64,000 nt of DNA from Campylobacter concisus. GTDB taxonomy: Bacteria > Campylobacterota > Campylobacteria > Campylobacterales > Campylobacteraceae. Every line of letters begins with the position of its first letter. Position 1 is the stretch's first letter. The notes beneath the pieces were generated by a model. It saw only the letters and a program-made list of their open reading frames with translations, was not told the DNA's origin and did not search any database. Location of the stretch: contig NZ_CP021642.1 of NCBI RefSeq assembly GCF_003048375.1, forward strand, positions 1,556,527 to 1,620,526, in the 5' to 3' direction. This document shows positions 31,289 through 37,868 of the stretch, piece after piece. The translations under genes and the position numbers were made by a program.

Positions 31289-32713
31289 TTATTTCTTAGG
31301 CGAGTCGCTATTTGGTTTTATAAATTTATCGATTAGTCCTTTGCCTATCTCACTTTGGTTTAAGCCTTCAAGCATTGAAGCTAAATTTGTGCCACCTTTT
31401 GAGCTTAGCACGTCACTTATTTTAGATAGGCCGTTTGATACGCTGCCCTCATTTGCGATGATCTTTAGATCAGCTGCACTTAGCGCTTTAGCCTGCTCTA
31501 AGCCCACATCTCTATTTGCCTCGATCTGTTTAATAGAGATAAGATAGGTCTGGTAGCCCTCGTTTTCGCCGATCTCTCTAGCAAGCTCAATCTGTGCATT
31601 TACAGGTGCAAGCTCTTTTAGTCTTAGTGCCTCAGCCTCAGCAGAGCCGATTTTTTGTATACCTTGTGACTCTTTATCTTTAGTCTCCAGTAAAGCAGCA
31701 GCCTCCAAAAATGCCTTCTCTTTCTCACCCTCAGCTGTTAAAATTTGATTTTGTTTGTGTGCTTCAGCGTCTTTGATCTTTGCATTTTTCCTAGCTTCAG
31801 CGTCGATCTCTATCTTTCTTTGCTCTTGCTCAGCTTTAACGATCTCTACTTGTTTTGAAATTTCAGCTTGCTTAACATCAGTAACTCTGATAACTTCCAT
31901 CTCTTTTTCTTTAGTGACCTTCTCTTGGTCAGCCACTTGTTGGCAAGCTTGCTGACGAGAAATAGCAACCTCTCTTTCGTTTTCAACTGTTTTTAGACCT
32001 ACTGCCTTTTCAGCCTCTTGTTTTTTAACATCAGTCTCTTGTTTTGCATTTACTTCAGCGATCTCGGCAATCTTTTTATTCTCAGCCACAGTCATACGAG
32101 ACTCTTTTTCGATTTCTGATTTTTTCTTCTCCATGATATTAAAGATGACCTTGCTATCTCTGCTATCGCGGATGTCCATTAACTCGATATTTTTGACAGG
32201 CTCTATGCCCCAGTTTTGAAGCTGCTCTTTGACTGCAGTTGTAAATTCTAAGCCAAATTCACTTCTTTGCTGCAAAATTTCCTCTAGCTGCTTGCTAGCT
32301 AAGATAGAACGGATCGAGCCTTGAATGATGTCAGTTAGCTGAAGCTCCATATCTTTAAGGTTTATGACGCGTTGCGCTGCTAGGTTGCTATCTTTTATCC
32401 TAAAAAATGCAGTGATATCGACCATAAATGGCAAACGACCGACATCATATGCCTCATAGCCATCTATCTTTATACTAAAAACAGAAACTGGCAAAACTAT
32501 CTTTGTTACACCGATTATTGGTATCCAGCTTGGAAATTCATAGTAGCTATTTCCGTTGGCTGTATCTTTGCCGTAAGATGTGGTGCTTTTTGATGTTTGA
32601 ACGATATGCACCTCATTTGTTGCAACAACGCGCCTAAATAAAAGCGGTATTAAAATGATAAACAGTATAACCACTGCGCCTACAATCATTGGAACTGAAT
32701 ATGCAAATTCCAT
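31289..32713 (-). CDS. flotillin-like SPFH/band-7 domain membrane protein with a long coiled coil
   Basis: N-terminal TM segment. SPFH region. E/K/A-rich coiled-coil segment. Confidence 0.7.
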   Translation of the reverse strand: MEFAYSVPMIVGAVVILFIILIPLLFRRVVATNEVHIVQTSKSTTSYGKDTANGNSYYEFPSWIPIIGVTKIVLPVSVFSIKIDGYEAYDVGRLPFMVDITAFFRIKDSNLAAQRVINLKDMELQLTDIIQGSIRSILASKQLEEILQQRSEFGLEFTTAVKEQLQNWGIEPVKNIELMDIRDSRDSKVIFNIMEKKKSEIEKESRMTVAENKKIAEIAEVNAKQETDVKKQEAEKAVGLKTVENEREVAISRQQACQQVADQEKVTKEKEMEVIRVTDVKQAEISKQVEIVKAEQEQRKIEIDAEARKNAKIKDAEAHKQNQILTAEGEKEKAFLEAAALLETKDKESQGIQKIGSAEAEALRLKELAPVNAQIELAREIGENEGYQTYLISIKQIEANRDVGLEQAKALSAADLKIIANEGSVSNGLSKISDVLSSKGGTNLASMLEGLNQSEIGKGLIDKFIKPNSDSPKK

Positions 32714-32990
32714 TTATTCTCCTTTTTATAATTTTTATAAAATATTAATAACCTACATATTTATGCTAGGTTATACACTTTAGACTTTACTTTAAAATGA
32801 ATTATTTTGCCAAATATGGCATGTTTGAATTAATTTTATATCTACCTCCTTTTAAATACTTTAGTTTTATAAACAAGAATTTTTTGGCTATTATAGTCAG
32901 TAATCCTTAAAATATAATGTAAATGTATTTTTATATTATAAAAAATTATATTGAAACCTTAATCTAAAAACAAAACCACTATGCATAGCA

Positions 32991-33671
32991 TTAGACTTTT
33001 ATTGCCTCTCTTAAAAACCTATATTCTTTAAAAAATTTGCGGAGTGATTTTTGCTCTTTTGGGCCGATCTTGTAGCTTATAAATTTAAGATACCACTTGA
33101 TATCTTGCTCGCTTATGTCGCGGCTTTTGGCATACTGGGCTAATATATAATTTGGAATTTTTACATTTTTTTGCAAAAATTTTGCGACCAGCCTTTTGTA
33201 AAACGAGCCATTTTTTACATAAGAAAATCTACCAAAAACAAAGGGCAAATTTGTCTTTTCATGCCAAATTTGACCAAGGTCGTAAAAGCACTCTTTGCCC
33301 TCGCTTAAGTATGCCTTTAGCGCCCTGTCGCCTATGATCACCTCGCCATTTAGTTTAAGCACCTTGGCTAGGGCGTTTGAGCTAGCTGAGGCAGGATCTG
33401 GCTTTGGGGCTGAGTTTTTGCGCACAAGCACGCTTTTGACATCTTTTTTGGCGACTATTCCAAAATTTAGCTTCTTTAAATTTGCCTTTTTGCTTGCTAT
33501 GCTTGAGATCACCGCAGCGTCGATCTTTCTAGCGTTTAGGGCTCTGTTTAGCTTGCTTGGCACGCCCTTTTTAAACTCGATCGCCTTTTTTATCTGAGAG
33601 CTTAGTGGGGCTGATTTTAAAAATACGTGAAATGGGAGTAAATTTAAATAATCAATCTTTCCAAATATCAT
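32991..33671 (-). CDS. mqnA: MqnA/MqnD-family menaquinone (futalosine pathway) protein, likely chorismate dehydratase
   Basis: N-terminus MIFGKIDYLNLLPF is typical of MqnA. In C. jejuni the homologue lies next to upp. Confidence 0.55.
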   Translation of the reverse strand: MIFGKIDYLNLLPFHVFLKSAPLSSQIKKAIEFKKGVPSKLNRALNARKIDAAVISSIASKKANLKKLNFGIVAKKDVKSVLVRKNSAPKPDPASASSNALAKVLKLNGEVIIGDRALKAYLSEGKECFYDLGQIWHEKTNLPFVFGRFSYVKNGSFYKRLVAKFLQKNVKIPNYILAQYAKSRDISEQDIKWYLKFISYKIGPKEQKSLRKFFKEYRFLREAIKV

Positions 33672-33940
33672 TTTTCATCTTTTACAAGCTCAAATTTAAC
33701 CATCTCATTTTCGTTGCAAACGTCGCGAAATAGCTGGGTTAAGCTCACTTTTGTGGCACTATCCAAAGCATTTTCGTTTTTTAGCTTTATAAGCGTTGGC
33801 TCATTTATCTCGCAAAGGCAGTCAAAGAGCGCGTCTAAATTTTTGCCGTAGTACTCTGGCAGGTCAAATTTCTTCGCTAAATACTCATGCATCTTCTCTT
33901 TTTCGACCATCTTTTTGGCATCTAAGATCACGCTTTTCAT
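33668..33940 (-). CDS. barstar-family ribonuclease inhibitor
   Basis: LPEYYGKNLDALFDCL matches barstar LPEYYGENLDALWDCL. 90 aa. Confidence 0.8.
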   Translation of the reverse strand: MKSVILDAKKMVEKEKMHEYLAKKFDLPEYYGKNLDALFDCLCEINEPTLIKLKNENALDSATKVSLTQLFRDVCNENEMVKFELVKDEK

Positions 33941-34443
33941 TGCATCCTCTTCTCATAAAGCAGATAAAAATGCTCGTAGTGATCGGGCGTGTAGTAGATA
34001 AGCCCGTCGTTTGAGTATAAAATTCTCTCAGCGCCGCGTCTGCCACCATTATAATTTACATCGCACTCAAACCACTTTCTACCATCAGCCTCAGGCAGCC
34101 TCTTTTCTCTGTTTGAAAATCTATCCCCGCCGATACTTTTGCCACCACTTACCTGCCATAAATTTCCGCTTTTTGCGTCCCAGCCAAGTTCAAGTGCCTC
34201 TTTTTTGGTTATGAAATTCTTTGGTAGCTTGTTAAATTTATAGATATAAAGCGCGACCTCATCTTTTGAGGTGTATGAGCCGTTTTCTGCGAGACTCTGG
34301 CTCTTTTGCCCCTCTTTGTTTAGCTGCTCAAGTAAAATTTGAGCGTTTTTGTTTGCCTCGCCGCCCTCTTTTGAAAAAAAGAAGGTGCCAACGATGATGG
34401 CAATGACAAAGGCGACTAGAGCTGGCAAAAGTCTTTTGTTCAA
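33937..34443 (-). CDS. barnase-family secreted guanyl-specific ribonuclease with N-terminal signal/anchor
   Basis: KLPKNFITKKEALELGW...GKSIGGDRFSNREKRLP...ERILYSNDGLIYYTPDHYEHF aligns with barnase (KLPDNYITKSEAQALGW...GKSIGGDIFSNREGKLP...DRILYSSDWLIYKTTDHYQTF). Confidence 0.8.
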   Translation of the reverse strand: MNKRLLPALVAFVIAIIVGTFFFSKEGGEANKNAQILLEQLNKEGQKSQSLAENGSYTSKDEVALYIYKFNKLPKNFITKKEALELGWDAKSGNLWQVSGGKSIGGDRFSNREKRLPEADGRKWFECDVNYNGGRRGAERILYSNDGLIYYTPDHYEHFYLLYEKRMQ

Positions 34444-34452
34444 ATTTAGCCC

Positions 34453-35079
34453 TTAAAGAGTGTTAAAAACTCTATCGCCAGCGTCACCAAGGCCTGGAAC
34501 GATGTAGTTTTTCTCGTTTAGTTTCTCATCGATCGATGCCGTATAGACCTCGACGTCTGGGTAAATTTCGCTAAATCTCTTTAGCCCCTCAGGTGCAGCG
34601 ATGATAGAGATAAATTTGATCTCTTTAACGCCCTTTTCACGCAAGAACTTAACCGCGTCTATCGCCGTGCCGCCAGTCGCAAACATAGGGTCGATGATGA
34701 TCGCCATGCGCTCTTTTGCGTCTTTTGGAAGCTTTGCGTAGAAAAACTCAGCCTGCGCTGTCTCTTCGTTTCGCTGAAAGCCCAAAAAGCCAACGCTAGC
34801 ATCTGGGATGATGGTAAAGACGCTATCAAGCATGCCAAGAGCAGCCCTTAAGATAGGGCATATCATCACCTTTGTAGTGAGCCTTTTTGCGTCTGCCACC
34901 GCAACTGGTGTTTGGATTTTGACATCTTTTACCTTTAAATTTCTAGTCGCCTCAAAGATCATAAGGTAGCTGATCTCATCAACTAGCATGCGAAACTGAA
35001 AAGGCTGGGTGTTTTTATCACGTAAGATTGTTAATTTATGCTCGATCAATGGGTGTGAGATGAGCTTCACGTTTTGCAT
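34453..35079 (-). CDS. upp: uracil phosphoribosyltransferase
   Basis: 208 aa. Typical UPRTase sequence. Confidence 0.95.
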   Translation of the reverse strand: MQNVKLISHPLIEHKLTILRDKNTQPFQFRMLVDEISYLMIFEATRNLKVKDVKIQTPVAVADAKRLTTKVMICPILRAALGMLDSVFTIIPDASVGFLGFQRNEETAQAEFFYAKLPKDAKERMAIIIDPMFATGGTAIDAVKFLREKGVKEIKFISIIAAPEGLKRFSEIYPDVEVYTASIDEKLNEKNYIVPGLGDAGDRVFNTL

Positions 35080-35168
35080 TTTTTGTCCTTAAATTTACTG
35101 TTTTTACAAGGTTTGTCTTTTACAAAATGCCAAGAGGAGAATTTAGCCCAAATTTGGGCTAAATTTGA

Positions 35169-36422
35169 TTAAAAACCTTTTGCAAGTTTGGCTTTGTAAG
35201 CCTCAACATCAAAATCTTTTACTCTCGCTACGCCATCTTCAACCGCAGCTTTTGCAACTGCTGGAGCGACCGCTGTTAGCACGCGCTTGTCAAATGGTTT
35301 TGGGATGATGTACTCTTTGCCAAATTTTAGCTCGCTAACGCCACTTGCTTTTAAAACTTCAGCTGGCACTGGCTCTTTTGCAAGCTGCGCAAGCGCTTTA
35401 GCTGCTGCCATTTTCATATTTTCAGTGATCTTTTTAGCTCTAACATCAAGCGCGCCTCTAAAGATAAATGGAAAGCCCAAAACGTTATTTACTTGGTTAG
35501 GATAGTCGCTTCTGCCTGTGCCCATCATAACGTCATCTCTTACAGCTACGACGTCCTCTGGGAAGATTTCAGGCACTGGGTTTGCCAAAGCGAAGATGAT
35601 AGGCTCTTTGTTCATCGACGCAACCATCTCTTTTGTCACAACGCCAGGCTTAGAAAGGCCTAAAAACATATCAGCGCCCTTCATCGCATCAGCTAAAGTC
35701 CTATCCTCGGTCTCAAGCGCAAATTCAACCTTTTCTGGAGTTAGGTCTGTTCTTTTTGAGTGGATGACGCCTTTGCTGTCTATCATCACGATGTGTTTTG
35801 CGCCAAGTGCTTTATACATCTTTGCGCAAGCGATGCCAGCTGCACCTGCGCCGCTAACTACGATCTTTATCTTAGATATATCTTTACCAGAAATTTCCAT
35901 CGCATTTATAATGCCAGCGCTTGTTATCATCGCTGTGCCGTGCTGATCATCGTGCATTACAGGGATATCGACTGCTTCTTGAAGCTTTCTTTCTATCTCA
36001 AAGCACTTTGGAGCACGGATATCTTCTAAATTTATACCGCCAAATGTCGGAGCAAGAGCCTTGCAAATCTCAACGATCTTATCAGGATCATGCTCATCTA
36101 GCTCGATGTCAAAGGCATCAACGTTTGCAAATTTCTTAAATAGCACCGCCTTGCCCTCCATAACTGGCTTGCCAGCAACAGCGCCGATGTCGCCAAGTCC
36201 AAGAACAGCCGTGCCATCAGTGATGACAGCTACTAAATTTGCTTTATTTGTATATTTATAAGCTAGTTCAGTGTCTGCATTTATCTCACGGCATGGCTCA
36301 GCAACGCCTGGTGTATAGGCCATTGAAAGGTCTCTTGAAGTCTCGCAAGGTGTCTTTACCCTGATCTCGATCTTACCGCCGATGTGGTAGTTTAGTGCCT
36401 CTTCTTTAGTTACATGTGTCAT
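35169..36422 (-). CDS. NAD(P)-dependent malic enzyme (short form)
   Basis: 417 aa with malic enzyme Rossmann region [11 protein letters not shown]. Confidence 0.85.
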
Positions 36423-37798
36423 TTCTCTTCCTTTAATAAATTTTGTATTCTTTTTTTGATCTCGTTGCTACCTACTACTTCAAGCACTTCAAAGATACTT
36501 GGGCTCACGCTTGAGCCAGTTAGCGCTATCCTTAGGGCCTGAGCTAGGTCTTTTAGTTTTAAGCCATTTTGCTCTAAAAATTTATTAGTTAGCTCCTCAT
36601 AGCCTTTAGCATCAAGGTCACGGTCTAAAATTTGAGCAAATTTCGCCAAAATTTCTTTGCTATTTTCATTTATAAATTTAGCCCAAGCTTTCTCGTCGTA
36701 GCTTTTTGGAGCGTTGATGATAGCATTTGCGCTGTTTGCCATTTCGATTAGCGTCTTTGATCTCTCACGGAGCGAATTTAGCAGTAGTTCACCCTTTACC
36801 AAAGCCTTAAAATCCACGCCAAATTCAAGCATATCATGCGCTAGCCTCTCATAAGGCAAAGTTTTTATATAGTGAGAATTTAGCCAGTCAAGCTTTTGAG
36901 CGTTGTAGGTGCTTGAGCTTTTGTTGATATCGTTTGGATTGAAGTATTTAAGCATATCCTCGATAGTAAAAATCTCATCATCGCCGTGGCTCCAGCCAAG
37001 ACGAACGAGAAAATTTAAGAGCGCTTCAGGCAAGTAGCCCATCTTTTTATACTCCATAACGTCGGTCGCGCCGTGCCTTTTGCTAAGCTTTTTGCCGTCC
37101 TCGCCGTTTATCATAGCGACGTGATAAAATTTTGGCACCTTAAAGCCAAGCGCCTCGTAAAGAACGATCTGTTTTGGGGTATTTGAGAGGTGATCATCGC
37201 CGCGGATAACGTCTGTTACGCCCATTAGCGCATCGTCTATCACAACTGTGAAGTTATATGTTGGCGTGCCGTCGCTTCTTGCGATGATGAAGTCGTCTAA
37301 GATATCTTCAACCTTAAATTTAACCTCGCCCTTTATGCCATCATGTATGACGATCTCACCACTAAGTGGGGCTTTTATACGGATGACTGGCTCGATGCCA
37401 GCTGGAGGCGTGCCTTTAAAACCTCTATATCTATTATCATATTTTGGGCGTTCTTTTCTAGCCTCTTGGCTAGCTCTAAGCTCCTCAAGCTCCTCTTTGC
37501 TCATATAGCATTTGTAGGCTTTGCCCTCATCAAGCAGCTTTTTAACGTACTCTTTGTAAAGATCAAACCTCTTTGACTGATAGGTCACTTCGCCGTCGTG
37601 ATCTAGCTTGCACCAAGCAAATGCCTCTTTTATAGCTTGTGTGGCTTCTTCTGAGTTTCGTTTTAAGTCAGTATCTTCGATGCGGAGCAGAAATTTTCCA
37701 TTGTTAGCTCTTGCGTATAAATAATTATAAAGAGCTGTCCTAAGTCCGCCTATGTGTAGGTATCCAGTAGGCGACGGAGCAAATCTAGTAACTATCAT
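36419..37798 (-). CDS. gltX: glutamyl-tRNA synthetase (start taken at [18 protein letters not shown])
   Basis: HIGG and KLSKRHG (KMSKS-type) motifs. Confidence 0.9.
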
Positions 37799-37868
37799 TT
37801 TGTGCCTTATTTTTATGTTATAATTGCCCAAAATTATATTTACTAAATACTTAAACAAAGGTTTCATT

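Follow-up and report, generated by a model that had tools for sequence, protein, structure and literature searches.

Campylobacter concisus carries a chromosomal gene pair that encodes a predicted barnase-family ribonuclease (RNase) of 168 amino acids (aa) and, directly downstream, a predicted barstar-family inhibitor of 90 aa. The pair lies on the minus strand of contig NZ_CP021642.1 between upp, encoding uracil phosphoribosyltransferase, and the menaquinone gene mqnA, and was studied within a stretch of 64,000 nucleotides (nt), hereafter called the window. The explanation that best accounts for the whole, and to which we assign a probability of about 0.7, is that of a chromosomal pair in which the RNase would be exported through the Sec pathway and would serve RNA salvage, the barstar would stay in the cytoplasm, and both genes would go back to a single old acquisition. 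The finding is real but ordinary: the system is of a known kind, it is publicly annotated and it is conserved in its clade. Beyond correct annotation it is of little consequence, being one more textbook barnase/barstar module.

The ribonuclease and its inhibitor

Both proteins are recognised by the Pfam models of the families to which a first-pass annotation of the window had assigned them. The 168-aa protein matches PF00545 (E-value 3.2e-19, 69.7 bits; cut-off 24 bits) and the 90-aa protein matches PF01337 over its full length (residues 1-85 of 90; E-value 2.7e-17, 63 bits; cut-off 23.4 bits). Moreover, phmmer searches against the PDB matched residues 60-160 of the RNase to barnase and binase (E-value ~4e-33) and the 90-aa protein to barstar (E-value ~2e-8). 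The motifs that the annotation had quoted, GKSIGGDRFSNREKRLP and DHYEHF for the RNase and LPEYYGKNLDALFDCL for the barstar, were all found in the open reading frames (ORFs) of the window. The identification of the two proteins goes beyond a chance match.

In the PDB alignment the RNase domain shares about 55% identity with Bacillus barnase over 101 aa, and an alignment of the domains of three Campylobacter copies gave 50-54%. Residues K27, E73, R83, R87, H102 and Y103 of barnase correspond to K80, E126, R136, R140, H155 and Y156 of the RNase and are all identical, as is D54 (D107 in the PDB alignment). In barnase, E73 acts as general base and H102 as general acid, and K27, R83, R87 and Y103 bind phosphate. 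The guanine-recognition loop of barnase, Ser57-Asn58-Arg59-Glu60, is likewise identical (S110-N111-R112-E113, SNRE); the RNase of a more distant Campylobacter metagenome-assembled genome (MAG; locus L075) has GNKE at this position. The six catalytic residues are invariant in an alignment of 19 sequences including Clostridial homologues, and catalytic residues are also invariant across all three Campylobacter lineages. In the AlphaFold2 (AF2) model, residues 56-168 have a predicted local distance difference test (pLDDT) value of about 90 or higher, and a Foldseek search against the PDB placed the modelled domain on barnase and binase with template modelling (TM) scores of 0.93-0.97 and root mean square deviations (rmsd) of 0.7-1.1 Å. 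As judged from these comparisons, the 168-aa protein is a barnase-family RNase with the alpha+beta fold and the complete catalytic set of barnase, and guanine-preferring activity is predicted for it.

Concerning the inhibitor, the helix that plugs the barnase active site is preserved as LPEYYGKNLDALFDCL, with equivalents of Tyr29, Asp35 and Asp39 present. Relative to Bacillus barstar, Glu80 is retained, whereas Trp38 is replaced by Phe, Glu76 by Asp and Thr42-Gly43-Trp44 by Cys-Glu-Ile. The acidic interface positions (NLD.L.D.L, D and EN) are invariant in every Campylobacter barstar aligned. By these features the 90-aa protein is a barstar with the acidic barnase-binding helix, and 1:1 inhibition of the RNase is predicted. 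The barstars of the Campylobacter showae group lack the Tyr-Tyr-Gly stretch: a deletion of two residues (e.g. L062:5380-5646) removes the equivalents of Tyr29-Tyr30, giving LDPDVKNLD as compared to LPEYYGKNLD. As the active site of the cognate RNase has not changed along with this loss, part of the interface must have been remodelled in that group.

The closest known systems are Bacillus amyloliquefaciens barnase/barstar (PDB 1a2p, 1brs, 1b27) and Bacillus pumilus binase (1buj, 1gou), with which the predicted model shares the fold (TM 0.95, rmsd 0.7-1.1 Å). Bacillus barnase has the identical set of catalytic Lys, Glu, Arg, Arg, His and Tyr together with the guanine loop, and its precursor has the same layout of signal (a putative one in C. 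concisus), pro or linker region and domain of ~110 aa. Bacillus barstar is likewise of ~90 aa, and its LPEYYGxNLDALxDCL helix is kept in C. concisus. Unlike the Bacillus systems, however, the C. concisus pair resides in a Gram-negative epsilon-proteobacterium, where Sec export reaches the periplasm only, and its RNase bears a long hydrophobic segment without a clear cleavage site. Furthermore, its two genes overlap and are set among housekeeping genes (gltX, the malic enzyme gene, upp, mqnA), whereas the Bacillus barnase and barstar genes are separate transcription units.

Both genes are already named in public databases. The RNase is 97% identical to a cluster of 268 members entitled 'ribonuclease domain-containing protein [Campylobacter concisus]' (WP_103577214.1), a RefSeq record with the same 168-aa gene model starting at TTG, and the inhibitor falls in RefSeq clusters named 'barstar family protein [Campylobacter concisus]'. 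The C. showae copies of RNase and barstar bear the same RefSeq names. NCBIfam holds no model for either the RNase or the barstar and is uninformative here, both families being covered by Pfam. In the literature, Tox-Barnase and Imm-Barstar have been listed in epsilon-proteobacteria, and simple barnase-barstar pairs have been described as widely distributed (Zhang et al. 2012, PMC3482391).

Distribution, selection and age of the pair

Using upp as anchor, we retrieved 80 loci from species-representative genomes and located the malic enzyme gene, upp, RNase, barstar and mqnA in them by tblastn. The order upp-RNase-barstar-mqnA was found with identical spacing in all 47 loci of the C. concisus complex (upp 97-100% identical), one of which is truncated by a contig border downstream of the RNase start. 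Of the 30 C. showae-like loci (upp 84-88%), 26 had an RNase (68-79% identical) with a barstar (44-52%) immediately behind it; three of the other four loci were too short to judge, which leaves 26 of 27 informative loci, and the last, L068, is without the pair, both genes being truly and cleanly gone. The more distant MAG L075 has a compact upp/RNase/barstar/mqnA arrangement with an RNase of 151 aa, starting at ATG and 61% identical. The pair is absent from Campylobacter ureolyticus (L080) and from two Campylobacteraceae MAGs (L078, L079), where mqnA begins ~320-350 nt after upp. The pair had been thought unusual for this lineage, a view that is not borne out by its presence at all 47 loci of the C. 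concisus complex, in 26 genomes of the C. showae-like group and in L075. Conservation across the whole genus, which would have spoken against an insertion, was found in part: the pair occurs throughout the C. concisus/C. showae clade and is missing from C. ureolyticus.

What lies between upp and mqnA varies among the loci. In the C. showae group a gene for a Flavodoxin_2 oxidoreductase stands between barstar and mqnA, and some members have extra ORFs between upp and RNase. The Flavodoxin_2 gene, which is NAD(P)H oxidoreductase-like (PF02525, E-value 5e-37), was seen at L062:5923-6573, L050:7002-7550 and L068:4241-4777, and L068 keeps it without the RNase/barstar pair. Two small adjacent ORFs of 122 and 113 aa without a Pfam match lie between upp and RNase at L050:4963-5676; the same two ORFs may be present in L065 and L076, where the gap from upp to RNase is longer. 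In C. ureolyticus the gap between upp and mqnA is filled by an ORF of 103 aa (L080:4632-4943), lipoprotein-like (FIGCAS) and without a Pfam match.

RNase and barstar are under purifying selection. Ratios of nonsynonymous to synonymous substitution rates (dN/dS; Nei-Gojobori method, 45-47 representatives) were 0.010 for upp, 0.031 for the malic enzyme gene, 0.059 for the RNase, 0.100 for mqnA and 0.209 for the barstar; within the C. concisus complex each of the five had a pairwise dS of ~0.3. Because the RNase is more constrained than mqnA, its activity appears to be useful and not merely tolerated. Within C. concisus the barstar varies much more than the RNase (>120 as compared to 3 clusters at 90% identity), its variable sites being at residues ~12-13 and ~56-75, and its barnase-binding helix is invariant. 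An arms race as the cause of this variability was considered and rejected, given a dN/dS of 0.21 and variable columns that lie outside the barnase-binding helix.

These figures bear on the notion of a selfish addiction module, in which loss of the barstar would be lethal as long as the RNase is intact and the cell would gain no benefit. The pair is wedged into a string of essential genes with overlapping codons, so that a clean deletion would be hard, and a 2017 study by Coray and colleagues is said to have dealt with barnase/barstar as a post-segregational killing pair in Escherichia coli. However, the RNase is under stronger purifying selection than mqnA, and its catalytic residues are invariant over a dS of ~0.3 and across clades. 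Mutations that inactivate the toxin would be expected to be neutral and common in such a module, but the ~73 RNase copies contain no more than one possible frameshift (L037) and a single in-frame stop (L077), and L068 lost both genes cleanly. We therefore regard an addiction module as very improbable. At L037:4637-5140 (CP147773.1, C. concisus RMIT-O23) 1 nt is missing from an A-run of the RNase gene (GAGAAAAGAGG to GAG-AAAGAGG), with a frameshift after codon ~113 and an intact barstar; this is either a natural knockout or a homopolymer assembly error. The C. showae-like RNase at L077:5504-5968 has its in-frame stop (GGRR*AQR) near a contig end and may be a pseudogene or a sequencing error.

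As to origin, the pair was probably acquired once, long ago, by an ancestor of the C. concisus/C. showae clade, and it is a clade-level and not a genus-wide trait. The old date is suggested by the common locus across the clade, by a guanine plus cytosine (GC) content of the pair (0.37-0.44) that is the same as that of the flanks, and by a dS equal to that of the neighbouring genes. If so, the pair is a clade-defining old acquisition that sets the oral C. concisus/C. showae group apart from other Campylobacter. The alternative is that a mobile module, atypical of the lineage, recently entered the upp-mqnA operon of this strain. An insertion as such, as proposed in the first-pass annotation, is consistent with the closeness of upp and mqnA in L078, L079 and L080, which are without the pair, and with the fact that the nearest relatives outside Campylobacter are from Firmicutes; a recent date is what fails. 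All C. concisus-complex representatives and the C. showae group have the pair at one and the same site, with unchanged junctions; it shows no compositional anomaly, and neither repeats nor an integrase nor plasmid or phage copies were found in association with it among the ORFs of the window and in a tblastn search of plasmids. A recent insertion in one strain has next to no chance of being right.

The best relatives of the RNase outside Campylobacter are from Clostridia and Bacilli (54-61% domain identity), and the donor was probably a Firmicute. Homologues found by tblastn against plasmids were almost all from Firmicutes (Bacillus, Clostridium), with two from Proteus, and all were below 60% identity; a plasmid-borne mobile origin within Campylobacter was rejected, as this search gave no homologue on Campylobacter plasmids. 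Closest among the non-Campylobacter proteins are RNases of Clostridia MAGs (P0007, P0016, P0028; ~273-288 aa) with 56-61% domain identity. They share GRKW.ECD..Y.GG.RGAERIVFSNDGLIYYT with the Campylobacter RNase, a long common motif around GRKW.ECD...GAERIVFSNDGLIYYT, and they have an N-terminal signal peptide. The Clostridia proteins, however, have two tandem barnase domains per chain and the Campylobacter proteins one. Tandem two-domain barnase-like proteins form >100 clusters in gut and digester metagenomes.

Proposed export and role, and alternatives

At its N-terminus the RNase has a strongly hydrophobic segment of 19 residues after a basic start (Kyte-Doolittle mean 2.71 over residues 5-23), in line with the signal or anchor that had been proposed for it. 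The AF2 model has a helix at residues 6-22 and another, of low confidence, at 30-45, and the region up to residue ~58 is modelled as a flexible linker. Orthologues of the C. showae group and of L075 also have a basic N-terminus, a hydrophobic segment and a variable polar linker; the linker (codons 25-58) varies in length and sequence between clades. From the N-terminal segment we infer, on sound grounds, that the RNase would leave the cytoplasm. Sequence inspection of the hydrophobic segment revealed no Cys, no AXA (small-x-small) cleavage motif and no lipobox. An uncleaved signal-anchor would be at least as likely as cleavage and release, so that 'secreted', as the RNase had been called, says too much.

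The proposed mechanism is as follows. The RNase would be made as a precursor and taken out of the cytoplasm by the Sec pathway, after which it would either remain bound to the periplasmic side of the inner membrane or be released. There it would cleave single-stranded RNA after guanines, leaving 2',3'-cyclic and then 3'-phosphate ends. The barstar would remain in the cytoplasm and bind 1:1 any RNase that folds before export, and the cell's own RNA would thereby be protected. The likeliest role of the enzyme would be the breakdown of extracellular or periplasmic RNA for nutrient salvage, and the pair, once landed in the variable upp-mqnA slot, would have been retained by purifying selection. 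For the Bacillus enzymes, too, nutrient salvage of RNA has been suggested. A location beside upp, which serves uracil salvage, fits this role without proving it. A Gram-negative parallel is RNase I of E. coli (rna, T2 family), which is outside the cytoplasm, yields 2',3'-cyclic ends and is thought to scavenge RNA; it is a functional analogue only, with an unrelated fold and family, and is not known to have a dedicated inhibitor gene beside its own. Since a pathobiont role in mouth and gut is under discussion for C. concisus, an exported RNase might take part in RNA scavenging, in turnover of the biofilm matrix or in damage to host cells.

Several points weigh against the reading as an exported salvage enzyme of Firmicute descent. 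A clear signal-peptidase site is absent from the hydrophobic segment, so that release from the cell is uncertain, and we know of no obvious route by which Campylobacter would pass a folded protein across the outer membrane. Chance at insertion may account for the adjacency to upp, as relatives without the pair have upp and mqnA side by side. The Firmicute origin rests on a ranking of identities and not on a rooted, broadly sampled tree. Finally, a literature search combining C. concisus or Campylobacter with barnase, barstar or secretome ribonuclease gave no study of a Campylobacter barnase.

In a variant of these ideas the uncleaved segment would hold the RNase on the inner membrane, its active domain exposed to the periplasm, and the enzyme would act as an 'RNA gate' fixed in a housekeeping operon (upp, RNase, barstar, mqnA), either feeding the salvage headed by upp or destroying incoming RNA, e.g. 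of RNA phages or transforming nucleic acid. We consider this distinctly unlikely; if true, a membrane-tethered periplasmic barnase would be a new cellular setting and a new role for a classic secreted enzyme. An anti-phage defence system was considered as well and dropped, since neither protein had a match in PADLOC-DB (E-value <= 0.01).

Besides nutrient scavenging, which fits and is judged likeliest, the first-pass annotation had offered an antibacterial function, for which we find no support in delivery domains, cassettes or toxin polymorphism. According to this alternative the RNase would be an interbacterial toxin that kills oral or gut competitors and the barstar its immunity protein. 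Barnase/barstar pairs are indeed classed with toxin-immunity systems, and epsilon-proteobacteria are among the carriers (PMC3482391). The Tox-Barnase/Imm-Barstar polymorphic modules (Zhang et al. 2012, PMC3482391) are of the same families and have the same order, toxin then immunity, and the barstar is more variable than the RNase (dN/dS 0.21 and 0.06; >120 and 3 clusters at 90% identity). Unlike the polymorphic modules, however, the C. concisus pair is of the 'simple pair' type: it lacks delivery or repeat domains at the N-terminus as well as an array of cassettes, and its toxin is not polymorphic. The precursor is a single-domain protein with signal or anchor and linker only, without a receptor-binding, translocation, RHS, type VI secretion (T6SS), contact-dependent inhibition (CDI) or type VII secretion (T7SS) delivery domain; neither spare toxin cassettes nor orphan immunity genes were found nearby among the window ORFs. 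The RNase is strongly conserved and not polymorphic, with three 90% clusters in C. concisus, and the variation of the barstar spares the barnase-binding helix at a dN/dS well below 1. To our knowledge, a bare barnase domain has no means of entry into a target bacterium. An antibacterial toxin is unlikely.

The RNase could also be directed at the host, as a cytotoxin or virulence factor that leaves the cell in, for example, outer-membrane vesicles and harms epithelial or immune cells. The restriction of the pair to the host-associated oral and gut C. concisus-C. showae clade and the predicted export signal speak for such a function, and the Bacillus enzyme binase is cytotoxic to mammalian cells; binase and barnase both damage such cells in vitro. 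Yet the secretome and virulence literature searched does not mention it, crossing of the outer membrane would be hypothetical, and the pair is universal in the clade and not tied to pathotypes, all of which makes a host cytotoxin quite improbable.

Gene layout and neighbouring features

As proposed in the first-pass annotation, the pair stands between upp and mqnA in a single co-directional and tightly packed string of genes. The features are listed in the table.

Table. Genes, protein segments and junction signals at the upp-mqnA locus (positions in the window; coding regions of the pair include the stop codon)
Feature	Position	Strand	Basis
gltX	36419-37867	-	Pfam/NCBIfam
Malic enzyme gene	35169-36422	-	Pfam/NCBIfam
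upp (uracil phosphoribosyltransferase)	34453-35079	-	TIGR01091, E-value 3.4e-83; PF14681, E-value 4e-71
AAGGG, Shine-Dalgarno-like site of RNase, overlapping the upp stop	34450-34454	-	Direct reading
Predicted barnase-family RNase, 168 aa, TTG start	33937-34443	-	ORF list; PF00545
RNase codons 1-24: MNKR and hydrophobic segment of 19 residues (putative export signal or signal-anchor)	34372-34443	-	Kyte-Doolittle; AF2
RNase codons 25-58: putative polar linker or pro-region, low confidence	34270-34371	-	pLDDT 50-55
RNase codons 59-168: predicted barnase-fold catalytic domain	33940-34269	-	AF2 pLDDT; Foldseek; alignment
AGAGGA, Shine-Dalgarno site of barstar, within the RNase 3' end	33945-33950	-	Direct reading; comparison of loci
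ATGA overlap, RNase stop/barstar start	33937-33940	-	Direct reading; comparison of loci
Predicted barstar-family inhibitor, 90 aa, ATG start	33668-33940	-	PF01337
ATGA overlap, barstar stop/mqnA start	33668-33671	-	Direct reading; comparison of loci
mqnA/mqnA2-type menaquinone gene (futalosine pathway)	32991-33671	-	PF02621 (VitK2_biosynth), E-value 7.2e-26

Overlaps of 4 nt had been described for each junction of the pair. This holds for RNase/barstar and for barstar/mqnA, both joined by ATGA, but not for upp/RNase, where a spacer of 9 nt separates the upp stop (34453-34455) from the RNase TTG (34441-34443). The two ATGA junctions and the AGAGGA site of the barstar are common to all C. concisus-complex copies. 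Upstream of the RNase, TTTAAGGGC(T/A)AAAT followed by TTG is conserved in C. concisus loci, and GA(G/A)AAGAGGATGCA followed by ATGA is kept at the barstar start in 46 of 46. The RNase start is TTG in 46 of the 47 C. concisus loci (GTG in the other one) and in 25 of 25 C. showae-group loci. As the RNase has a weak, conserved TTG start while the barstar has ATG, a strong AGAGGA site and ATGA coupling, we infer that the layout favours the inhibitor over the enzyme and that barstar would be at least equimolar with RNase. Such a layout would illustrate well how a cell can keep the dose of a hazardous enzyme in check.

Concerning expression signals, a consensus scan gave 16 promoter-like and 10 terminator-like sites as compared to 10.7 and 5.6 in shuffled sequences, and was not used as evidence. 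It revealed no convincing minus-strand terminator between upp and mqnA; the only minus-strand hairpin in the pair (34402-34386) is weak and lies inside the codons of the putative signal peptide. A search of 32500-35400 against Rfam at the gathering threshold gave no match, and thus no known riboswitch or leader. Overlapping ORFs of 54-72 aa on the plus strand or in alternative frames within 33796-34214 were taken as shadows of the RNase and barstar genes and set aside.

Six genes from gltX to mqnA run in the same direction. The gltX and malic enzyme genes overlap by 4 nt (36419-36422), and the sole sizeable gap in the string is that of 89 nt upstream of upp (35080-35168). In Campylobacter jejuni, MqnA2 is Cj1285c (PMC4178425). 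Between mqnA and a downstream SPFH/Band-7 gene (31289-32713), the interval 32714-32990 is very AT-rich (GC ~0.21-0.24) and contains several promoter-like hexamer pairs on both strands.

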